Below, in pieces: positions 8,480-60,103 of a stretch of 64,000 nt of DNA. The position numbers and the translations under genes are program-made. Every line of letters starts with the position of its first letter. Positions within the stretch are counted from its first letter, which is position 1. Origin of the DNA: a virus. Where the stretch lies: IMG/VR virus record IMGVR_UViG_3300044611_001420; one strand, written 5' to 3'. The notes under the pieces were generated by a model. It was not told the DNA's origin and did not search any database. It saw only the letters and a list, made by a program, of their open reading frames with translations.

Positions 8480-11400
8480 ATGGCAGATAAAGGTTTCGGT
8501 TTAAATCAACTAAATTTTACTGGAATAGCAGGAACTTCATTAATTGAGAGTGGAGATACTCTGCAGGTAAATGCTCCTTTATTTTCTGTTAGCACAGATT
8601 TTTCTGTCGGTGGGAAGGTAAACTCAAATATAATTCTCTCAAGTTCTTATTCTATTGGTATTGGTTCTACTCAACCAAAAGAAAAACTTGATGTTTTAGG
8701 GAATATAAATGTTTCTGGTTCAGTAACTGCAACATCTTTTGTGGGATCTGGTACTGATCTCATTGGAGTAGCAAAAAATACAATATCTGCAATTGACGAG
8801 AATAATTATTATTATCCAATTCTGACTCCATCTTCAGCAAATGCTGGTACTTATTCAACAGTTGTAGTTCCATCCAGTAAACTTGTTTTTAACCCATCAG
8901 GTTTGTTGGGAATTGGAAGCACGACTCCAAATTATAATTTAGATGTTGTTGGTACTGGAAGATTTACAGGAAATTTAATTGCTTCAAGTTTTGTAGGTAA
9001 CTTAACAGGTACAGCAACTACTGCTTCTGGATTAACTGCAACATCAAATATAAACACTACAGGAATTATAACTGCTTCTAGTTTTACTGGAAATCTTACA
9101 GGTACAGCAACTACAGCATCCAATGTAAGTTCTACTATTAACGTAAACACTACAGGTATTATAACTGCTTCTAGTTTTACTGGAAATCTTACAGGTACAG
9201 CAACTACAGCATCCAATGTAAGTTCTACTATTAACGTAAACACTACAGGTATTGTAACTGCTTCTAGTTTTACTGGAAATCTTACAGGTACAGCAACTAC
9301 AGCAACAACAGCACTTGGTGTATCAACAACAATTAGCATTAATACTACAGGAATTATAACTGCTTCTAGTTTTACTGGAAATCTTACAGGTACAGCAACT
9401 ACAGCAACTACAGCAAATAATGTAAATTCTAGTATTAATATAAACACTACAGGAATTATAACTGCTTCAAGTTTTGTAGGTAACTTAACTGGAACAGCAA
9501 CTACTGCCTCAGGATTAACTGCAACATCAAGTGTAAACACTACTGGAATTGTAACTGCTTCTAGTTTTGTAGGTAACTTAATTGGAACAGCAACTACAGC
9601 AGTTGGTTTAGGTACAACATCAAGCATTAACACTACAGGAATTATAACTGCTTCAAGTTTTGTAGGTAACTTAACAGGTACAGCAACTACAGCAACTACA
9701 GCACTTGGTGTATCAACAACAATTAGCATTAATACTACAGGAATTATAACTGCTTCAGTTTTAAGAGTTGGAACTAGTGTAACTGAATCAATTGGAATTA
9801 CTACAAATATTATTAGTGGTGGAAATTTATTACTCATAAATCCTGCCACCGTAGGAGTTTCTACAGGAACAGTTAGAATCCTTGGCAACTTGATTGTTGA
9901 GGGAACAACATCCACTACCCAAGAATTAGTATTAACTTCTTCAGATAAACTTATAGCAGTTGCAAGTACAATAGGAAATGATATTGACTTAAATGGAGCT
10001 GGAATAGGGATTGGTTCTACATCTGTAAGAAAATTTATACGATGGCATTATGCATCTAACACATTAAAGAGTTCCGAGAATTGGAATTTAGAATCAGGAA
10101 AGACTTATCAAATCAATGACACTTCGGTTCTTACATCAACAACATTAGGTTCTGGTGTTACTATCTCCAGTATTAGAAGTGTTAGTTCTGGAATCATAAC
10201 TGATAGAACAGAACTTACTTCTGGTCAGGTATCTGGTAGTGACTATTTGTTAATTTACGATGTAAGTGACCCAACAAACTTAAAGAAAGCAACAATTCAA
10301 AATGCTGCTCTTCAAGGTCTTCAGGGAACTCAGGGTACTCAGGGTCTCCAGGGACTTCAAGGTACTCAGGGAACTCAAGGTACTCAGGGAACTCAAGGAA
10401 CTCAAGGCACTCAAGGTCTTCAGGGAACTCAAGGCACTCAAGGTCTTCAGGGAACTCAAGGTACTCAGGGAACTCAAGGAACTCAAGGTCTTCAAGGTCT
10501 TCAGGGAACCCAAGGTACTCAAGGTGCTCAAGGTCTTCAAGGTCTTCAGGGAACCCAAGGTACTCAAGGTACTCAGGGATCTCAAGGTCTTCAGGGTACT
10601 CAGGGAACTCAAGGTACTCAAGGACTTCAGGGTACTCAGGGAACTCAAGGTACTCAAGGACTTCAGGGTACTCAGGGAACTCAAGGTACTCAGGGTACTC
10701 AAGGACTTCAGGGTACTCAGGGAACTCAAGGTACTCAGGGTACTCAAGGACTTCAGGGTACTCAGGGAACTCAAGGTACTCAGGGAACTCAAGGTCTTCA
10801 GGGAACTAGTGGAACTAGTGGAACTAGTGGTTCTTCCAATTGGACTGCAGTTTTAGTTAATGTGACGAGAGATTCCTCCGACCCAACAAAATTCACCAAA
10901 ACTGGTGGTTCTGATTCTACTTGGGACTCATCTGTTTATTCAGAACAAGGTTTTGTTCTTGGTGCTTACATATCATCAAGAATATCATCAACAAGTGGTA
11001 GTGCTATAGTTGGTCTAGGAACAAATCCATCAGCATCTAGTAATCAAAATTTTGATTACGGTATGTATTTGGATAATGGTGACATCAAATCAATTGAAAA
11101 TGGTTCTGTTACTGGTCTTGGCACTACATATGAAATTAGTGATTATCTTTCAGTTACTTATGATGGTGCAAATATTAGATACTATAAAAATTCATCTTTA
11201 CTGAGAACTGTTGCCCGTTCTACAGGAAATGCATTATATCTTGATAGTTCAATTTTTACATCCAATCTTGCATTTGAAGACCTTGTATTTGGTCCTATGG
11301 GACCTCAAGGTACTCAAGGATTACAAGGATTACAAGGAACACAGGGAACTCAAGGTACACAGGGAACTCAAGGTACACAGGGAACACAAGGAACTCAGGG

Positions 11401-52211: not shown

Positions 52212-54090
52212 ACTAATTGATTTTTGTTTGGATACAGAAAATCCTGAAAAAAATTATAAACTAGCTCAGTGGTATGAGAAGCAAAATCATACCGCATCAG
52301 CACACGTTTATTATTTTAGAGCAGCAGAAAGGACAGAGAATAAAAATTTTGCATATACTTCACTTCTTCGTTCTTCCGTTTGCTATAAAAGTCAAGGAAA
52401 ACGAGATGCAACTGAAAAATTATTAATTCATGCTGCTTTATCTTTTCTGACAGAAAGACCAGAGGCATACTATTTTCTTTCTTTGTTTTATGAAAGAAAA
52501 GAAGAATGGGACCAATGTTATTTGTATGCAGACTTTGGATTGAAATGTTATGAAAATGAGGTTGAATCAATAGATTTGCCAGAATATCAAGGAAAGTATG
52601 CACTTATTTACCAAAAAGCACTTGCCTCCTGGTGGTGGGGACGAGGAGAAGAAAGTAAAAAACTTTTTCAATCTCTTAAGAATGATTATTGGAATGTGAT
52701 GAATGATAATTATAAAAATCTTGTTAATGAAAAATTATTTACTTTTTTTAAGCAAGAAAGTGCAAAATACTCCAAGGAAGTAATAAACGTTGATAATGCA
52801 ATTTTAGAAAAATATACTCTTGAAAATAAAGATTTAAAGGTCAGCAATAATGAAGAAGTCGTGGAACCAAATACAATAAGAAAAAAAATAGGTTTTGATG
52901 TTGGAGCATGTGTTGGTGAAACAATCTCTAAATTTGATGGGTTTGATAAAATCTATGCATTTGAACCAGCTCCTCATGTATTTAATATTCTTGTTGAAAA
53001 ACATAAAAATGATCCAAGAATTGAATTTTATGAGATGGCAATATCTGATGAAGATGGGGTAAAATCTCTAAAGTATCATTACAATTATGGTTATTCTTCA
53101 TTTTTAGAAATTGATAAAGAAGGAGAATTTGCAAAAAAATGTCAAGAGTTTGATCCAGGTTTTGATAATATCGTATCAATAATTGATGTCCAAACGAAAA
53201 GGATTGATACTTTTATGCAAGAAAATTGCATTGAACATATAGATTTTCTCAAAATAGATACACAAGGAAATGATTTAAATGTAATTAAATCTCTTGGTAA
53301 AATGATTGATAAAGTTGATACTATAGAGTTGGAAGTTCAGATTAAACCTTTGTATAAAAATTCAAGTTCTAAAGAAGAAATTGTAGATTTTATGCAAAAG
53401 AATAATTTTAATCTCATATCAGAAGAATCAAATAATTTTTTACTAAAAGATTATGAAGAACGACTAACTTTTAAACAAAAAAAAGATAAATCTTGTTTTT
53501 CTATTAATGAATATAAAAAATCAACTTCTTGGATTGTAGATAATTTTTATGATAACCCTGATGAGATTCGTAAATTTGCTTTGGAACAAGAATTTGGAGA
53601 TGAAAGTGTAATTACTGGATTTGTTGGAAGAAGAACATTTAATCAATTCTTATTCCCTAAATTAAAAGAAGCATTTGAATCTGTGATGGGTAAAAAGATT
53701 ACAAAATGGGAAGAACACGGAATGAATGGAAGGTTTCAAATTTGCTGGTCTGGAGAAAGATTGGTCTATCACTGTGATAGTCAAAGATGGGGAGGTATGA
53801 TTTATCTCACACCCAATGCTCCATTTCAATGTGGAACTACATTATATGCTGATAAGAAAAATAGAGCAAGAACTTATTATGACCAAGGATGGGATGAATA
53901 TTGGGCTAATACCCCAGGAGATTGTCATTTAGACAGAACACCATTTGAACCTGTAGATGTATTTGGAAATGTATATAATCGTCTTGTAATTTTTGATGCA
54001 AGTTGTATTCATTCTGCTTCAGAATACTTTGGAACTAATAAGGAAAATGCAAGACTATGGCAAATGTTCTTCTTTGATACGGAGGATTGA
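52204..54090 (+). CDS. TPR + FkbM methyltransferase + 2OG-oxygenase-like fusion
   Basis: RPEAYY.L (TPR); FDVGACVG...AFEP...IDFLKIDTQG (FkbM); IVDNFY..P...HCD...YLTP...YNRLVIFD...HSA...R..Q.FFF (oxygenase). Confidence 0.8.
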   Translation: MNELIDFCLDTENPEKNYKLAQWYEKQNHTASAHVYYFRAAERTENKNFAYTSLLRSSVCYKSQGKRDATEKLLIHAALSFLTERPEAYYFLSLFYERKEEWDQCYLYADFGLKCYENEVESIDLPEYQGKYALIYQKALASWWWGRGEESKKLFQSLKNDYWNVMNDNYKNLVNEKLFTFFKQESAKYSKEVINVDNAILEKYTLENKDLKVSNNEEVVEPNTIRKKIGFDVGACVGETISKFDGFDKIYAFEPAPHVFNILVEKHKNDPRIEFYEMAISDEDGVKSLKYHYNYGYSSFLEIDKEGEFAKKCQEFDPGFDNIVSIIDVQTKRIDTFMQENCIEHIDFLKIDTQGNDLNVIKSLGKMIDKVDTIELEVQIKPLYKNSSSKEEIVDFMQKNNFNLISEESNNFLLKDYEERLTFKQKKDKSCFSINEYKKSTSWIVDNFYDNPDEIRKFALEQEFGDESVITGFVGRRTFNQFLFPKLKEAFESVMGKKITKWEEHGMNGRFQICWSGERLVYHCDSQRWGGMIYLTPNAPFQCGTTLYADKKNRARTYYDQGWDEYWANTPGDCHLDRTPFEPVDVFGNVYNRLVIFDASCIHSASEYFGTNKENARLWQMFFFDTED

Positions 54091-54092
54091 TA

Positions 54093-54863
54093 ATGAACGA
54101 AAAATTAATAAATTTTCCCCCAGTTTATTATATTTCTTTAAGTGATTCTACCGACAGACAACAATCATTTGAAAATCAATTTATTTTAAATGGAATTGAA
54201 AATGTAAAAATGATTGAAGCATATGATGGTAGGAAAGAAGATTATAGGAATAAACCCGATATTGTTGATGGTCTTCATTTTGAGTCTATGGATTCTGGTG
54301 CAATTGCTGCTACAATTTCCCATTTAAAAGCAATATCAGAGTGGTATTATAATTCAGATTCTGATTATGCAATCTTTTTTGAAGATGATATGGCAATAGA
54401 ATCTATAAATTATTGGAATTTCAATTGGCAAGAATTTGCTAAAGAATTACCAAAAGATTGGAATGTAATTCAATTATCATTAATTAAATCAGAGATTCAA
54501 GAAAGTGATATGAAATTGAATCATAGAAATTGGGATATAAATTGGTCTGCAGGAAGTTATTTAATTAAAAAAACTTATGCTAAAAAATTAATAGATTTAT
54601 ATTTTAATAATGAAAAATATTTTTTAAAAGTTGAATATAATGAGGAAACAATTCCTTATATAGAAACTATTTTGTTTTCTCCTGCAGTTAAAAATGCATA
54701 TACAATTCCCTTATTTTATGAAAATATAAATTTTGCTTCAACTTTTTACCCACATTTTATTCAATCAACTCATAAAGGAACTCAAATTGACTCTTCAAAT
54801 TATGTTCGTTATTGGTGGAAAATAAAAGGGAAAGAATTAACTTTAAATGATTTAAAGTTATAA
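54093..54863 (+). CDS. GT25-family glycosyltransferase
   Basis: YYISL....DR...AYDG...GAIA..ISHLKA...IFFEDD; ATG at 54093 (track uses TTG 54087). Confidence 0.8.
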   Translation: MNEKLINFPPVYYISLSDSTDRQQSFENQFILNGIENVKMIEAYDGRKEDYRNKPDIVDGLHFESMDSGAIAATISHLKAISEWYYNSDSDYAIFFEDDMAIESINYWNFNWQEFAKELPKDWNVIQLSLIKSEIQESDMKLNHRNWDINWSAGSYLIKKTYAKKLIDLYFNNEKYFLKVEYNEETIPYIETILFSPAVKNAYTIPLFYENINFASTFYPHFIQSTHKGTQIDSSNYVRYWWKIKGKELTLNDLKL

Positions 54864-54887
54864 TTTATCTTCAAACCTAACAGAGTG

Positions 54888-54916
54888 ATTTTAGTTAGAT
54901 TTTTATGTCTTGTCAA
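54888..54916 (-). promoter_or_regulatory. Putative sigma70 promoter firing antisense into the glycosylation island
   Basis: Minus strand: TTGACA (54916-54911), 17 nt, TAAAAT (54893-54888). Confidence 0.55.
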
Positions 54917-54919
54917 CAC

Positions 54920-54948
54920 TTGACACTCAAAAGTTGTTGATGTATGAT
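54920..54948 (+). promoter_or_regulatory. Sigma70-type early promoter
   Basis: TTGACA (54920-54925), 17 nt, TATGAT (54943-54948). Confidence 0.85.
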
Positions 54949-54953
54949 GAAAA

Positions 54954-55050
54954 GGTCTTCGCAACTTCGTAGCTTTGAGTTGCAAGACCCGTCCTGTGGT
55001 GGGGACGGATTTCAAGGTGGAACAACGGGGGTCTCTGACCCCTTTTTTTT
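54954..55050 (+). ncRNA. Putative structured small RNA, family unassigned
   Basis: Begins at the expected TSS. Stems GGTCTT/AAGACC plus GCAACTT/GAGTTGC, then CGTCCT/GGGACG, then a terminator. GC-rich island in AT-rich DNA. Confidence 0.65.
55028..55050 (+). terminator. Intrinsic terminator
   Basis: GGGGTC-TCT-GACCCC followed by T8. Confidence 0.85.
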
Positions 55051-55057
55051 ATAAATA
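55050..55057 (+). promoter_or_regulatory. T4-type late promoter
   Basis: Exact TATAAATA upstream of the endonuclease. Confidence 0.7.
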
Positions 55058-55080
55058 ATAGTGTATAGTGTGTGTCCCTG

Positions 55081-55776
55081 ATGAAAAATACTTATTATAC
55101 TTATGCTTGGTTAAGAGAAGATAAGACCCCTTACTATGTTGGTAAAGGTATTGGTAATAGAGCATATCGTTCTCATAAAAGAGGCAATAAATATATGCCT
55201 TCTCCACCAAAAGATAGAATAATATTTTTAAAGAAAAATCTAACGGAGTTTGATGCATATAAGCACGAAAATTATATTATCACTATTTTGGGTTTAAAAA
55301 GTGAAGGTGGTTTATTGATTAATATGTCTTATGGTGGAGAAGGAAGTTCTGGAAGAAAACCTAGTGAATATTGTATTGAAAGAACTAAACAAGCAAATAT
55401 AGGGAAAACTCTTACCGAAGAACATAAGAAAAAGGTTTCGCAACAAGTATCTCAAAGGAGATGGTGGAATAATGGAGAAATAGACAAGCATACTATTGAA
55501 TGTCCTGGTGATGGATGGGTTCTTGGTAGATTATTTAATTCTAAAAGTGAGAAATACAAAACAAAAGATTTTGCTGAAAAGTCAAGAAGAACCAATTTGG
55601 GGAAAATTGTTAGTGATGAAACAAAAATGAAACAAAGTCAAAAAAGAAAAGGAAGAAAGTGGTGGAATAATGGAGATAAAACAAAGTTATGTTATGAATG
55701 TCCTGGTGATGGTTGGGTTCAAGGAAGACCTGGACCACTTTTCCAAGTGTCCATTCGGGAATCCCAAGAGCAGTAG
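55081..55776 (+). mobile_element. Free-standing GIY-YIG-like homing endonuclease with NUMOD3-like and duplicated WWNNG..CPGDGW..GR repeats
   Basis: YYTYAWLRED.TPYYVGKG..NR...E...L.N...GGEG; GKTLTEEHKKKVS; ATG at 55081. Confidence 0.8.
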
Positions 55777-55802
55777 TCTCTGGTATGATTACGGAGTAGT
55801 CA
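55733..55802 (+). promoter_or_regulatory. Dyad-box / extended -10 promoter of the VWA-peptidase gene
   Basis: GACCACTT-TTCC-AAGTGTCC, 31 nt, TGg-TATGAT (55784-55789); no TTGACA. Confidence 0.7.
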
Positions 55803-55814
55803 AAAGCAAACCAG

Positions 55815-58004
55815 ATGTCGGTAAATCTAGAAGTTAAAGGAATGCTGGCTAAATGCCTTGCGATGGAAAATATTATCATTGAGCATAAAAAAGTTCCAAC
55901 TGCTATGTTTGATGTTGAACGTAGGGTATTGACTTTACCGACTTGGGACAAAGCAAGTGATACGGTATATACACTTTTGGTTGCCCACGAAGTGGGCCAT
56001 AGTTTGCATACCGATAATATTGACTGGACAAAAGATTACCCAGAAGTGCCCAAAGACTTCGTAAATGTTCTGGAAGATGTTCGTGTAGAACGTCTGATGA
56101 AGAAGAAGTATCCTGGTCTGTCTAGGACTTTCTATAATGGTTATAATGAACTCAACAACGATGATTTCTTCTCCACCAAAGATGAGAAACTGGATGATTT
56201 GAGTTTTATTGACCGAATTAATCTCTACTTCAAGATTGGTGCATTTCACAACATTGCCTTCAATGATGAAGAAAATGAGTTTCTGACTCGTGCTTCATTG
56301 ACGGAAACCTTTGATGAAGTTCTGCAACTTTCCCGTGATATTGTTGAGTTTGTAAAATACAAAAGGCAAAAAATCAGCAATATGCCCACTCCTGGTGGTA
56401 GTGAAGAAATGTCTGGTCCTGGTGGGGAAGAAGTAGAAACTCCTCAACAAACGTCTTCATCTGAAGATGGTGATAATTCTAACGGAAAGAACAAAACTGA
56501 ATTGGATCAAGACTCACAGGGACAGTCTCAATCTGAAGGTGAATCTTTCGGTGAAGAAATGTCCAAGTCTATTGAAGCACCAGAGGGTGGTGGATTCGGG
56601 CAAGACCCAAGTGATAAGCACGGAAAAACTCTTGAAGATGAACTGTCATCTAAAACTTCTCGTTCTTTTGATGAAAAGTCTAAAGATTTGGTGGATAAGT
56701 ATGCTCAAGAAACTCATTATGTGGAACTTCCTAAGATGAATCTTGAGACAATGATTATTCCCAATAATTATATTCATTATAAAGCAAAAGAGCATTACGC
56801 AAGTGTTGGTTCTTGGGTTCGTGATGCTTATGACCTTGCTTGTAAGGAATATAATACCTACAAGAAATCAGCAGAGAAAGAAGTTTCTTATCTGGTAAAG
56901 GAGTTTGAGTGCAAGAAGTCTGCTGACCAGTATGCTCGTTCTAGTGTTGCTAGAACTGGTGTTCTTGATACACAGAAACTTCATACTTACAAGTTTAACG
57001 AAGACCTGTTTAAGAAAGTTTCTGTAGTCCCTGATGGCAAGAATCACGGTCTTATCTTCATTCTTGACTGGTCTGGTTCAATGGGTGAATTCATTCTGGA
57101 TGCATACAAGCAACTTCTAAATCTCATTTGGTTCTGCCGTAAGGTGAATATTCCTTTTGAGGTTTATGCTTTTACTCTTGATTGTCATTCTTATGCAGAA
57201 CTTCAACCAAATCATCCTCCTGTCTATGAAAGGGTTGCAAATGTTCTATCACCTGAGAATTCTTTCCGTTTGATGAACTTCTTCACCAGCAAAACAAATA
57301 CTCGTGTTCTTGAAGAACAACTGAAAAATATTTGGGTTGCTTGTTACTTCTTTCAAAAGAAAATGGGTTCTGTTCCTCGTCATCTTGACCTTTCTGGTTC
57401 TCCTATTGGTGAATCTCTGATGGCACTACACTCTTTGATTCCTGATTTCCAGGCAAAGAATAAACTACAAAAGGTCAATGTCATCTTTCTGACTGACGGG
57501 GAAGGGTATCAGAATTCAGTGACAACTGAAAGAAAACTTGGAGATGGTACAACCAGAATTGGTCATACCAAACACTCTCGGACTTCAATTCGTGATCGTA
57601 AGACTGGTAGAATCTATCAACCTTTGAATTACGATAACTTCCCTTTGTATGCTAAAGTTCTTCTTCAAACAGTCAAAGATAAGTTCCCTATGGTGAATGT
57701 GATTAACTTCCGTATCACCCCTAGTCGTGATTTTTCAAACTGTTATCGTTGGTATGGTGGGGGTCAGTCTTCGGAATACGAAAAAATCAAAACTGATTAT
57801 CGTAAGGAAGGTTGTGTTCAATTTCAAAACACTGGGTTTGACCAATTCAATGTGGTTCTTGCATCTTCTCTTGCTCAAGATGAAGAGTTCTCTGTTCCTG
57901 AGAATGCAACAAAGTCCCAGATTAAATCATCATTTGTGAGGATGTTGGGTAAGAAGAAAACTAACAAGAAACTGCTCAGCAATTTTATTACTCTAGTTGC
58001 CTGA
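55815..58004 (+). CDS. CobT-like metallopeptidase + VWA protein (partner of CobS-like ATPase)
   Basis: HEVGH (HExxH), NVLED.RVE; MIDAS DWSGS and FLTDGE. Confidence 0.85.
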   Translation: MSVNLEVKGMLAKCLAMENIIIEHKKVPTAMFDVERRVLTLPTWDKASDTVYTLLVAHEVGHSLHTDNIDWTKDYPEVPKDFVNVLEDVRVERLMKKKYPGLSRTFYNGYNELNNDDFFSTKDEKLDDLSFIDRINLYFKIGAFHNIAFNDEENEFLTRASLTETFDEVLQLSRDIVEFVKYKRQKISNMPTPGGSEEMSGPGGEEVETPQQTSSSEDGDNSNGKNKTELDQDSQGQSQSEGESFGEEMSKSIEAPEGGGFGQDPSDKHGKTLEDELSSKTSRSFDEKSKDLVDKYAQETHYVELPKMNLETMIIPNNYIHYKAKEHYASVGSWVRDAYDLACKEYNTYKKSAEKEVSYLVKEFECKKSADQYARSSVARTGVLDTQKLHTYKFNEDLFKKVSVVPDGKNHGLIFILDWSGSMGEFILDAYKQLLNLIWFCRKVNIPFEVYAFTLDCHSYAELQPNHPPVYERVANVLSPENSFRLMNFFTSKTNTRVLEEQLKNIWVACYFFQKKMGSVPRHLDLSGSPIGESLMALHSLIPDFQAKNKLQKVNVIFLTDGEGYQNSVTTERKLGDGTTRIGHTKHSRTSIRDRKTGRIYQPLNYDNFPLYAKVLLQTVKDKFPMVNVINFRITPSRDFSNCYRWYGGGQSSEYEKIKTDYRKEGCVQFQNTGFDQFNVVLASSLAQDEEFSVPENATKSQIKSSFVRMLGKKKTNKKLLSNFITLVA

Positions 58005-58969: not shown

Positions 58970-60103
58970 ATGCCTACAAAATCTAACATTATGACTGACC
59001 AAGCAATCTCTATTCTGAAAGAAAAGTTTGGCACCGAGTTTGGTGTCGATGCTGTAAAAGAAGTGGCAGCAGAACTGGGCACTTCGTATGCGACTCTTTC
59101 TAAGTATCTGAATCAATACAAGACTGGTCGTGGTAAATGGAATCTGGAGGCAACTGTGCAAGAACTTGAAGAAACTTACAACTCTCCTGCTGCAGAAGGT
59201 TCCGATACGGTTCCTGGTGTGGCAACTATGAATTCTGTTGTTCAAAATCTTATTCCTAAAAAAGATGATACCTTCGTCAGCTTTGGTAATTTCTCTGATA
59301 TTAAGAAAGTTATTCAGTCTGGTCTATTCTATCCTGCTTTCATCACTGGGCTTTCTGGTAATGGTAAAACTTTTGGTGTTGAGCAATCTTGTGCCCAACT
59401 GAAACGAGAACTTATTCGTGTTAATATCACGATTGAGACTGATGAGGATGACCTGATTGGTGGTTTCCGACTCGTCAATGGGGAAACCGTGTGGCACAAT
59501 GGTCCTGTTGTGGAAGCAATGGAACGTGGTGCAATTCTTCTGCTTGATGAGATTGACCTGGCATCTAATAAGATTATGTGTCTGCAATCTGTCCTGGAAG
59601 GCAAAGGTGTCTTTCTGAAGAAAATTGGTAAGCACGTTGTTCCTAAAGCAGGATTCAATGTGATTGCAACTGCAAATACCAAAGGTAAGGGTTCTGATGA
59701 TGGACGTTTCATTGGCACCAATGTTCTCAATGAGGCATTTCTAGAACGATTCCCAATTACCTTTGAGCAGGATTATCCTACTCTTGCAACGGAAACCAAA
59801 ATTTTGACAAAGGTGGCAGAATCACTTAACATTCCTATGATTGGTGAGCATACTGATTTCATCAAGCATCTCTGTACTTGGTCTGAGATTATTCGTAAGA
59901 CCTTTACTGATGGTGGTATTGATGAAGTAATTTCTACTCGTCGTCTGGTTCATATTATCAAAGCATATTCTATCTTTGGTAAGAAAGACAAAGCACTAAA
60001 AGTTTGTCTGAATCGTTTTGATGATGAGACTAAAAGTACCTTTGTTGAACTTTACGACAAGATTGATGCTGAATTTCAGCAAAATAAAACAGAAGAGGGG
60101 TGA
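58970..60103 (+). CDS. cobS: CobS/MoxR-like AAA+ ATPase
   Basis: Walker A GLSGNGKT, Walker B LLLDEID, ATANTKG, NEAFLERF, STRRL. Confidence 0.9.
   Translation: MPTKSNIMTDQAISILKEKFGTEFGVDAVKEVAAELGTSYATLSKYLNQYKTGRGKWNLEATVQELEETYNSPAAEGSDTVPGVATMNSVVQNLIPKKDDTFVSFGNFSDIKKVIQSGLFYPAFITGLSGNGKTFGVEQSCAQLKRELIRVNITIETDEDDLIGGFRLVNGETVWHNGPVVEAMERGAILLLDEIDLASNKIMCLQSVLEGKGVFLKKIGKHVVPKAGFNVIATANTKGKGSDDGRFIGTNVLNEAFLERFPITFEQDYPTLATETKILTKVAESLNIPMIGEHTDFIKHLCTWSEIIRKTFTDGGIDEVISTRRLVHIIKAYSIFGKKDKALKVCLNRFDDETKSTFVELYDKIDAEFQQNKTEEG

Follow-up and report, generated by a model that had tools for sequence, protein, structure and literature searches.

What does the short stretch between a glycosyltransferase gene and a homing-endonuclease gene of an uncultured cyanophage encode, and if it encodes an RNA, how might that RNA act? 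The stretch occupies positions 54954-55050 of the DNA analysed here (the window, 64,000 nucleotides of IMG/VR virus record IMGVR_UViG_3300044611_001420). The whole record comprises 122,923 bases and is estimated to be 59% complete; the window also encodes large structural and glycan-modifying proteins. The flanking genes code for a family-25 glycosyltransferase (54087-54863) and a GIY-YIG-like, homing-endonuclease-like protein (55081-55776), followed by a cyanophage 'peptidase'/cobT-like protein (55815-58004; phrog_459, E = 4.7e-246) and cobS (58970-60103). The peptidase is at most 45% identical to any cultured-phage homologue and its best matches all belong to Synechococcus or Prochlorococcus myoviruses, which places the phage in an uncultured lineage of T4-like cyanomyoviruses.

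A complete predicted transcription unit was found on the plus strand. Its sigma70-type promoter (54920-54948) consists of a -35 element TTGACA (54920-54925), a 17-nt spacer and a -10 element TATGAT (54943-54948); with 11 of 12 consensus matches, it is the joint best within 6.5 kb. The predicted transcript of ~97 nt (54954-55050) would start at a purine (54954/54955) and run through the whole T-run. A bulged hairpin, P1 (54955-54988), has 13 bp in the minimum-free-energy fold and carries a 15-nt apical loop (54965-54979), here CUUCGUAGCUUUGAG and in the family consensus CUUUGUNNCUUUGAG. It is abutted by hairpin P2 (54989-55008), with 7 bp in the fold and 6 bp in the family consensus, whose loop GUGGUGG (54996-55002) corresponds to the family motif GGUGGUG or GUGGUG. 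A single-stranded linker of 18 nt, AUUUCAAGGUGGAACAAC (55009-55026), contains a second G/U motif, GGUGGAAC (55016-55023), and leads into an intrinsic terminator (55027-55050) made of GGGGGUC-UCU-GACCCC (55027-55043) and T8 (55043-55050). An earlier reading of the letters alone (the sequence-only reading) had described a consensus promoter, a bulged 13-bp stem from the predicted transcription start, an abutting 6-bp stem, a linker and a GC terminator with T8, and all of these parts were recovered. Compared with shuffled sequences, the fold of 54954-55050 had a z-score of -2.41, and 5 of 200 shuffles were equally stable. The window fold is thus modestly unusual by itself; it is conservation and covariation in relatives that raise it above chance.

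The same reading had found the RNA neither tRNA-like nor assignable to a family, and both statements agree with our searches. No match was obtained for the whole window with Rfam 15 (4227 models) at gathering thresholds, and ARAGORN predicted no tRNA or tmRNA genes in the window. When positions 54850-55150 were searched at E up to 10, the only matches, mir-1814 (15 bits vs 90) and bxd_2 (11 vs 80), were attributable to chance. Structured RNAs of T4-like cyanophages have been described before: wcaG, manA, glnA and PhotoRC-II (RF01761, RF01745, RF01739 and RF01717), which are 5'-UTR cis-regulatory candidates (Weinberg et al. 2010, PMC2864571). Like them, the present element is a conserved structured RNA of T4-like cyanophages that came to light through comparative genomics; unlike them, it has its own terminator and changing neighbours, and it matched none of these models at E up to 10.

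In the literature searched, the only cyanophage RNAs of this sort were the S-PM2 psbA-region RNA (named in PMC10690425) and a few cis-regulatory motifs. The motif may be listed under a number among the 10,006 viral candidate structured RNAs of PMC10690425, an IMG/VR-built catalogue of 2023, and no paper describing the RNA family was found in the literature searched. The element appears to represent a new RNA family of the phage-sRNA kind. As for the S-PM2 psbA-region RNA, we take it to be CfrI.

Relatives of the element were collected by synteny, by sequence pattern and with a covariance model. Blastn detected it, promoter included, at 73-100% identity in about 25 peptidase-syntenic loci. A covariance model (R1) built from 15 such loci matched 54954-55050 with 111.6 bits. 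It detected the element over its full length in 32 of the 80 loci gathered by synteny and in 63 of 95 viral loci gathered with a P1-loop pattern; a stricter pattern applied to metagenomes added 93 further stretches. The resulting family comprises 98 distinct variants, 87-109 nt in length, recovered from contigs of uncultured cyanomyoviruses and from metagenomes; a copy also lies in one cultured phage, S-SRM01. A single R1 match was present in the 123-kb record and a single one in the 241-kb S-SRM01 genome, indicating a copy number of one.

S-SRM01 is a cultured freshwater phage (Kyanoviridae, Serangoon Reservoir). Its copy (MW015081.1:10976-11078; 52.8 bits, E = 2.6e-10) lies in an unannotated gap before a glutaredoxin gene and is unmentioned in the S-SRM01 paper, which reports no transcriptome data (PMC8557907). 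When four family variants were compared with 50,697 phage records by blastn, all matches were of terminator size; the S-SRM01 copy surfaced with a fifth query that carried flanking genes. When this copy was used as the blastn query, no other isolate was found. Phages DSL-LC02, S-PM2 and B3, searched with R1, contained no true member; the two weak matches obtained (18-19 bits) represented a gene end plus terminator in one case and coding sequence in the other. A search of 151 genomes sampled from the picocyanobacterial family with R1 yielded nothing, and a pattern scan of bacterial genomes gave no true member among the 120 matches listed. With no homologue in the 151 picocyanobacterial genomes, the RNA would not seem to be a copy of a host-derived sRNA.

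Some close relatives have kept only part of the element. In seven loci whose peptidase is about 80% identical (L011-L014, L016, L019 and L069), the promoter, P1 and P2 are absent, and a linker-like remnant, GACAGTTGACATAGTGGCACAGTAG, is retained together with the terminator. In locus L063, the 5' half is swapped for unrelated sequence. Loss of the 5' two-thirds in such close relatives suggests that the gene is dispensable.

Structure conservation was assessed in a 53-sequence alignment (A2). In this alignment, which was fitted to the model and whose sequences are mutually related, 96.5% of pair cells were paired vs 83.5% in shuffles, and compensatory cells numbered 168 vs 51 +/- 6. Both sides had changed at 19 of 23 pairs, so that the compensatory changes the sequence-only reading had proposed to look for do occur, and pairing fell to 40-61% in controls in which the partner strand was slid. 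The lower stem of P1 (GUCUU/AAGAC) is conserved and its middle covaries: each pair between A2 columns 13-21 and 40-45 was doubly changed in 14-29 sequences, and in several lineages the middle has been replaced wholesale. In P2, all cells were paired (100% in the 53 sequences), compensatory changes occurred at 6 of 6 pairs, and at least six versions of the stem exist, e.g., CCGUCC/GGACGG, CUGUCC/GGACAG, CCUCUUC/GAAGAGG and CCUUUCC/GGAAAGG. The terminator stem covaries in the same alignment. When folded alone, 73 of the 98 members formed the three hairpins. In addition, the frequent U-G pairs would read as C-A mismatches on the other strand, which identifies the plus strand as the RNA strand.

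The predicted transcription signals are conserved as well. All 52 variants scored had TTGACA, exactly 17 nt, TAnnnT and 5 nt to the RNA start; the spacer sequence drifts while this geometry stays identical, and the first RNA base is a purine followed by GUCUU. The T-run was 6-8 nt long in 51 of 53 sequences. The sequence-only reading had seen no start codon with a plausible RBS inside the transcript, and no open reading frame is conserved across the 98 variants: stops occur in each frame in 72-100% of them, and the spacing between conserved anchors falls in all classes modulo 3. A promoter at a fixed distance, an intrinsic terminator and the lack of coding potential point to an independently transcribed bacterial-type sRNA gene. 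The comparative evidence shows an uncatalogued conserved RNA family of T4-like cyanophages, of which the window would hold an autonomous gene of ~97 nt, and we regard it as very probable that this is a real, independently transcribed, structured noncoding RNA gene. The earlier picture of a stand-alone structured RNA with its own host-type (early-type) promoter and terminator therefore holds to the extent that comparative evidence can carry it.

The RNA promoter is one half of a conserved divergent pair. On the minus strand of the window, a second promoter, TTGACA, 17 nt, TAAAAT (54888-54916; 11/12 consensus score), stands back to back with it, and the two share a -35 palindrome region. GTCAA was present at most 12 nt upstream of the TTGACA of the RNA in 62 of 89 distinct upstream regions, all 62 of which had a minus-strand TAnnnT at 16-18 nt. 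This second promoter points away from the RNA gene and is followed by about 28 conserved nt (CACTCTGTTGGGTTTGAAGATAAATTATA), a leader that runs antisense into the 3' end of whichever gene is upstream; in the window, this minus-strand module lies at 54866-54916. The same module was seen on the plus strand downstream of the RNA in loci L240, L249 and L232.

The promoter spacer itself shows complementarity to the RNA in some members. In loci L044, L050, L266, L240, L282 and L062, the spacer just after the -35 element is perfectly complementary over 9-11 nt to the 5' arm of P1, with which it changes (CCCTCAAGAC/GTCTTGAGGG, ACCTCAAGA/TCTTGAGGT, TCCTCAAGAC/..GGA and CCTTCAAGA/TCTTGAAGG). Such pairing could provide an alternative fold in read-through transcripts from upstream; it is absent from the window (-4.9 kcal/mol). 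In S-SRM01, the spacer contains CCACCAC (L417 2489-2495, MW015081.1 about 10947-10953), the exact complement of the GGUGGUG of the P2 loop; this is a single observation.

The sequence-only reading had placed the RNA at a boundary between late and early genes. This location is not a property of the family: most members precede the cobT-like peptidase gene, and others are found elsewhere. In one lineage, which includes S-SRM01, the RNA stands before a late-type TATAAAT promoter and the glutaredoxin gene, and in another it is followed by a second sigma70-type promoter unit. Among the 67 distinct variants of the metagenome scan, 61 had a promoter-like site within a few bases after the T-run. The changing gene neighbourhoods, and the fact that the next gene nearly always has a promoter of its own, speak against a riboswitch or other leader.

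The short gap that separates the T-run from the peptidase promoter is a hotspot for free-standing homing-endonuclease genes. In the window and in loci L001, L010 and L463, a GIY-YIG-like gene with a late-type promoter, TATAAATA, lies between the T-run and the extended -10 of the peptidase gene; in the window, the gene occupies 55081-55776 and its promoter 55050-57. At the same spot, L029 (2973-4000), L048, L467 and L474 carry an unrelated gene for a 288-aa HNH-type endonuclease. A cobalamin riboswitch was suspected in the L029/L048 insertion, which had no Rfam match and proved to be this endonuclease gene. The peptidase gene of the window has an extended -10, TGGTATGAT (55781-55789), without a -35 element. 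In relatives that lack an endonuclease gene, this extended -10 abuts the T-run of the RNA, so that the terminator hairpin occupies the -35 position. In locus L240 (6235-6345, minus strand of the locus), a second TTGACA-17-TAAAAT promoter was observed between the RNA and the peptidase gene; the about 85 nt that follow are closed by a long-range helix, CUGUGGGUU...GAACCCCACAG, without a terminator, and this unit may be another structured RNA or a leader.

While the stems change, three unpaired G/U-rich patches are almost invariant: the 15-nt loop of P1 (CUUUGUNNCUUUGAG), the GGUGGUG of the P2 loop, and a further copy of the GUGGU type. Because two collection patterns required the P1 loop, one of them together with GTGGTG, invariance there is partly by construction and counts as independent evidence only in the synteny-collected set. 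Of the 98 variants, 97 have two or more GUGG-type motifs (2-3 copies) 3' of P1. About 40 variants hold the second copy in the linker, as GGUGGAAC or GGUGGUAU, and about 43 hold it in the terminator loop, e.g., within GGGGAG-GUGGUG-CUCCCC; about 13 have it at both sites. Variants with a degraded linker copy (AGUGUAC) carry the motif in the terminator loop. Nearly all motif copies have the core UGG(U/A) in common. Fixed loops on changing stems point to a trans-acting RNA whose function resides in the patches.

Partners for these patches were sought by complementarity. The P1-loop complement was not enriched in the window, and in 401 picocyanobacterial genomes its counts equalled those of a reversed-pattern control; CCACCACA was not enriched in the window either. 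Pairing with the leader of the adjacent peptidase gene did not covary (own -16.6 vs permuted -16.5 kcal/mol, p = 0.31), and pairing between the P1 loop and the conserved minus-strand leader gave p of about 0.08-0.10. Loop pairing with Yfr1, the 16S anti-Shine-Dalgarno sequence or the Ro/Y-RNA helix was considered by eye and rejected, as matches were inconsistent between lineages.

On this basis, a mechanism can be proposed. Host RNA polymerase would start at the near-consensus sigma70-type promoter, which implies a predicted early transcript. P1 would form the very 5' end of the RNA, and transcription would stop at the intrinsic terminator of the unit. The RNA would then act in trans through the three exposed G/U-rich patches, with the covarying stems serving only to present them. 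By short antisense pairing with single-stranded, C/A-rich partners (mRNA leaders, for instance, or a small RNA of the host), the patches would alter translation or stability early in infection. We tentatively judge this trans-acting early sRNA to be the most likely mechanism and place titration of a protein second. Pairing is favoured because most known phage and bacterial sRNAs act in this way; however, the invariant 15-nt loop exceeds the typical seed length, and protein binding would account about equally well for a motif that is repeated and can shift its position.

Two bacterial RNA types illustrate these possibilities. GcvB of enterobacteria is a trans-acting sRNA with G/U-rich seeds and resembles the cyanophage RNA in having its own promoter, an intrinsic terminator and conserved G/U-rich single-stranded patches for C/A-rich sites. 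The two have no sequence or Rfam relationship, and the cyanophage RNA differs in being phage-encoded and in carrying its patches in hairpin loops; in addition, no Hfq-type context is known from cyanobacteria. CsrB/RsmZ RNAs present repeated GGA loops to CsrA. The cyanophage RNA likewise has a short repeated motif in loops and linkers with flexible copy position, but its motif is GGUGGUG rather than GGA and is present in only 2-3 copies, two being the minimum for a sponge.

The alternatives to pairing differ in which of these features they explain. The RNA is possibly, though with lower probability than pairing, a decoy that titrates an RNA-binding protein of host or phage through its two or three exposed GGUGGUG-type motifs, perhaps with the U/G-rich P1 loop binding it as well. 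The retention of two or more copies in 97 of 98 variants fits this reading, and the movement of the second copy between linker and terminator loop indicates that number and exposure matter more than position. Also in its favour are the lack of an extended complementary target in the phage window or the 401 host-family genomes and the preference of the RRM-type Rbp proteins of cyanobacteria for poly(G) and poly(U). However, no conserved neighbouring gene could encode the partner, and base-pairing sRNAs also carry repeated seeds. The UGG(U/A) core in nearly all copies has suggested another target, the 3' ends of host tRNAs, whose NCCA tails would be captured or sensed by the exposed UGGN of GUGGU; UGGN-NCCA pairing occurs in the T-box antiterminator bulge and the RNase P L15 loop. 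In its linker form, GGUGGAAC / GGUGGUAC, the motif presumably resembles the T-box sequence GGUGGNACC, and GGUGGNAC, which contains UGGN, lies just upstream of the terminator as in a T-box. This short GGUGGNAC resemblance is all that is left, since the T-box model RF00230 found nothing at E up to 10, Stem I, a specifier-like element and an alternative antiterminator are missing, and the downstream genes are not aminoacyl-tRNA related. In addition, a tRNA tail has only 4 free nt whereas 7 nt are invariant, and the invariant P1 loop would be left unexplained; we consider tRNA-end binding improbable. A broader version, a multivalent trap in which UGGN motifs capture tRNA NCCA ends or G/U loops titrate host RRM-type RNA-binding proteins, is unlikely as well, if a little less so.

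Two further readings deny the RNA a role in trans. It might be a cis-acting leader of the peptidase/cobS mRNA, i.e., a riboswitch, an attenuator or an antitermination RNA of the HK022 put kind, and its terminator does usually end about 35 nt before the peptidase start codon in most syntenic relatives; two stem-loops right after a promoter also resemble HK022 put RNA. However, the downstream gene varies by lineage, a 0.7-kb homing-endonuclease gene intervenes in the window, and a separate promoter comes after the T-run in 61 of 67 contexts. Antiterminator pairing of the P1/P2 junction with the terminator 5' arm is weak, with hardly any lineage specificity (own -7.8 vs cross -7.4 kcal/mol), terminator stems are far stronger (-11 to -15 kcal/mol), and the terminator loop itself bears the conserved motif in about half of the family, all of which makes a cis-acting leader highly improbable. 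The last reading, to which we assign the smallest chance, is that no RNA function exists and that the element is a PeSL-like terminator-promoter junction for recombination or insulation, or simply a conserved target region for the homing endonucleases that insert next to it. PeSL (promoter-early stem-loop) cassettes of T4-type phages are multicopy units of a terminator plus promoter that are dispersed in hyperplastic regions (Arbiol et al. 2010, PMC2839356), and like them the present element joins stem-loop terminators to a strong early promoter of sigma70-like type where gene modules meet and gene content varies. Insertion of two unrelated homing-endonuclease genes exactly after the T-run, and absence or truncation of the element in some close relatives, would also suit such a junction. 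Unlike PeSLs, however, the element occurs once per genome (two genomes) and not as a dispersed repeat, its promoter precedes the hairpins instead of following them, and about 70 nt of covarying, loop-conserved RNA are enclosed between promoter and terminator. It is P1 and P2, which are not terminators, that covary strongly around fixed loops.

Only very few small RNAs encoded by phages have been assigned a role. The family described here is widespread in uncultured relatives, its promoter is conserved almost perfectly, its structure has strong covariation support and its loops are apparently under strict selection. The cultured pair of S-SRM01 and Synechococcus KCZYC6 makes expression, partners and phenotype directly testable. 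Should the multivalent trap prove true, a cyanophage would seize core host translation or mRNA handling early in infection by means of a small RNA and not a protein. More generally, if the RNA turns out to reprogramme translation or RNA handling in the host, the takeover of abundant freshwater phototrophs by cyanophages would gain an RNA layer.
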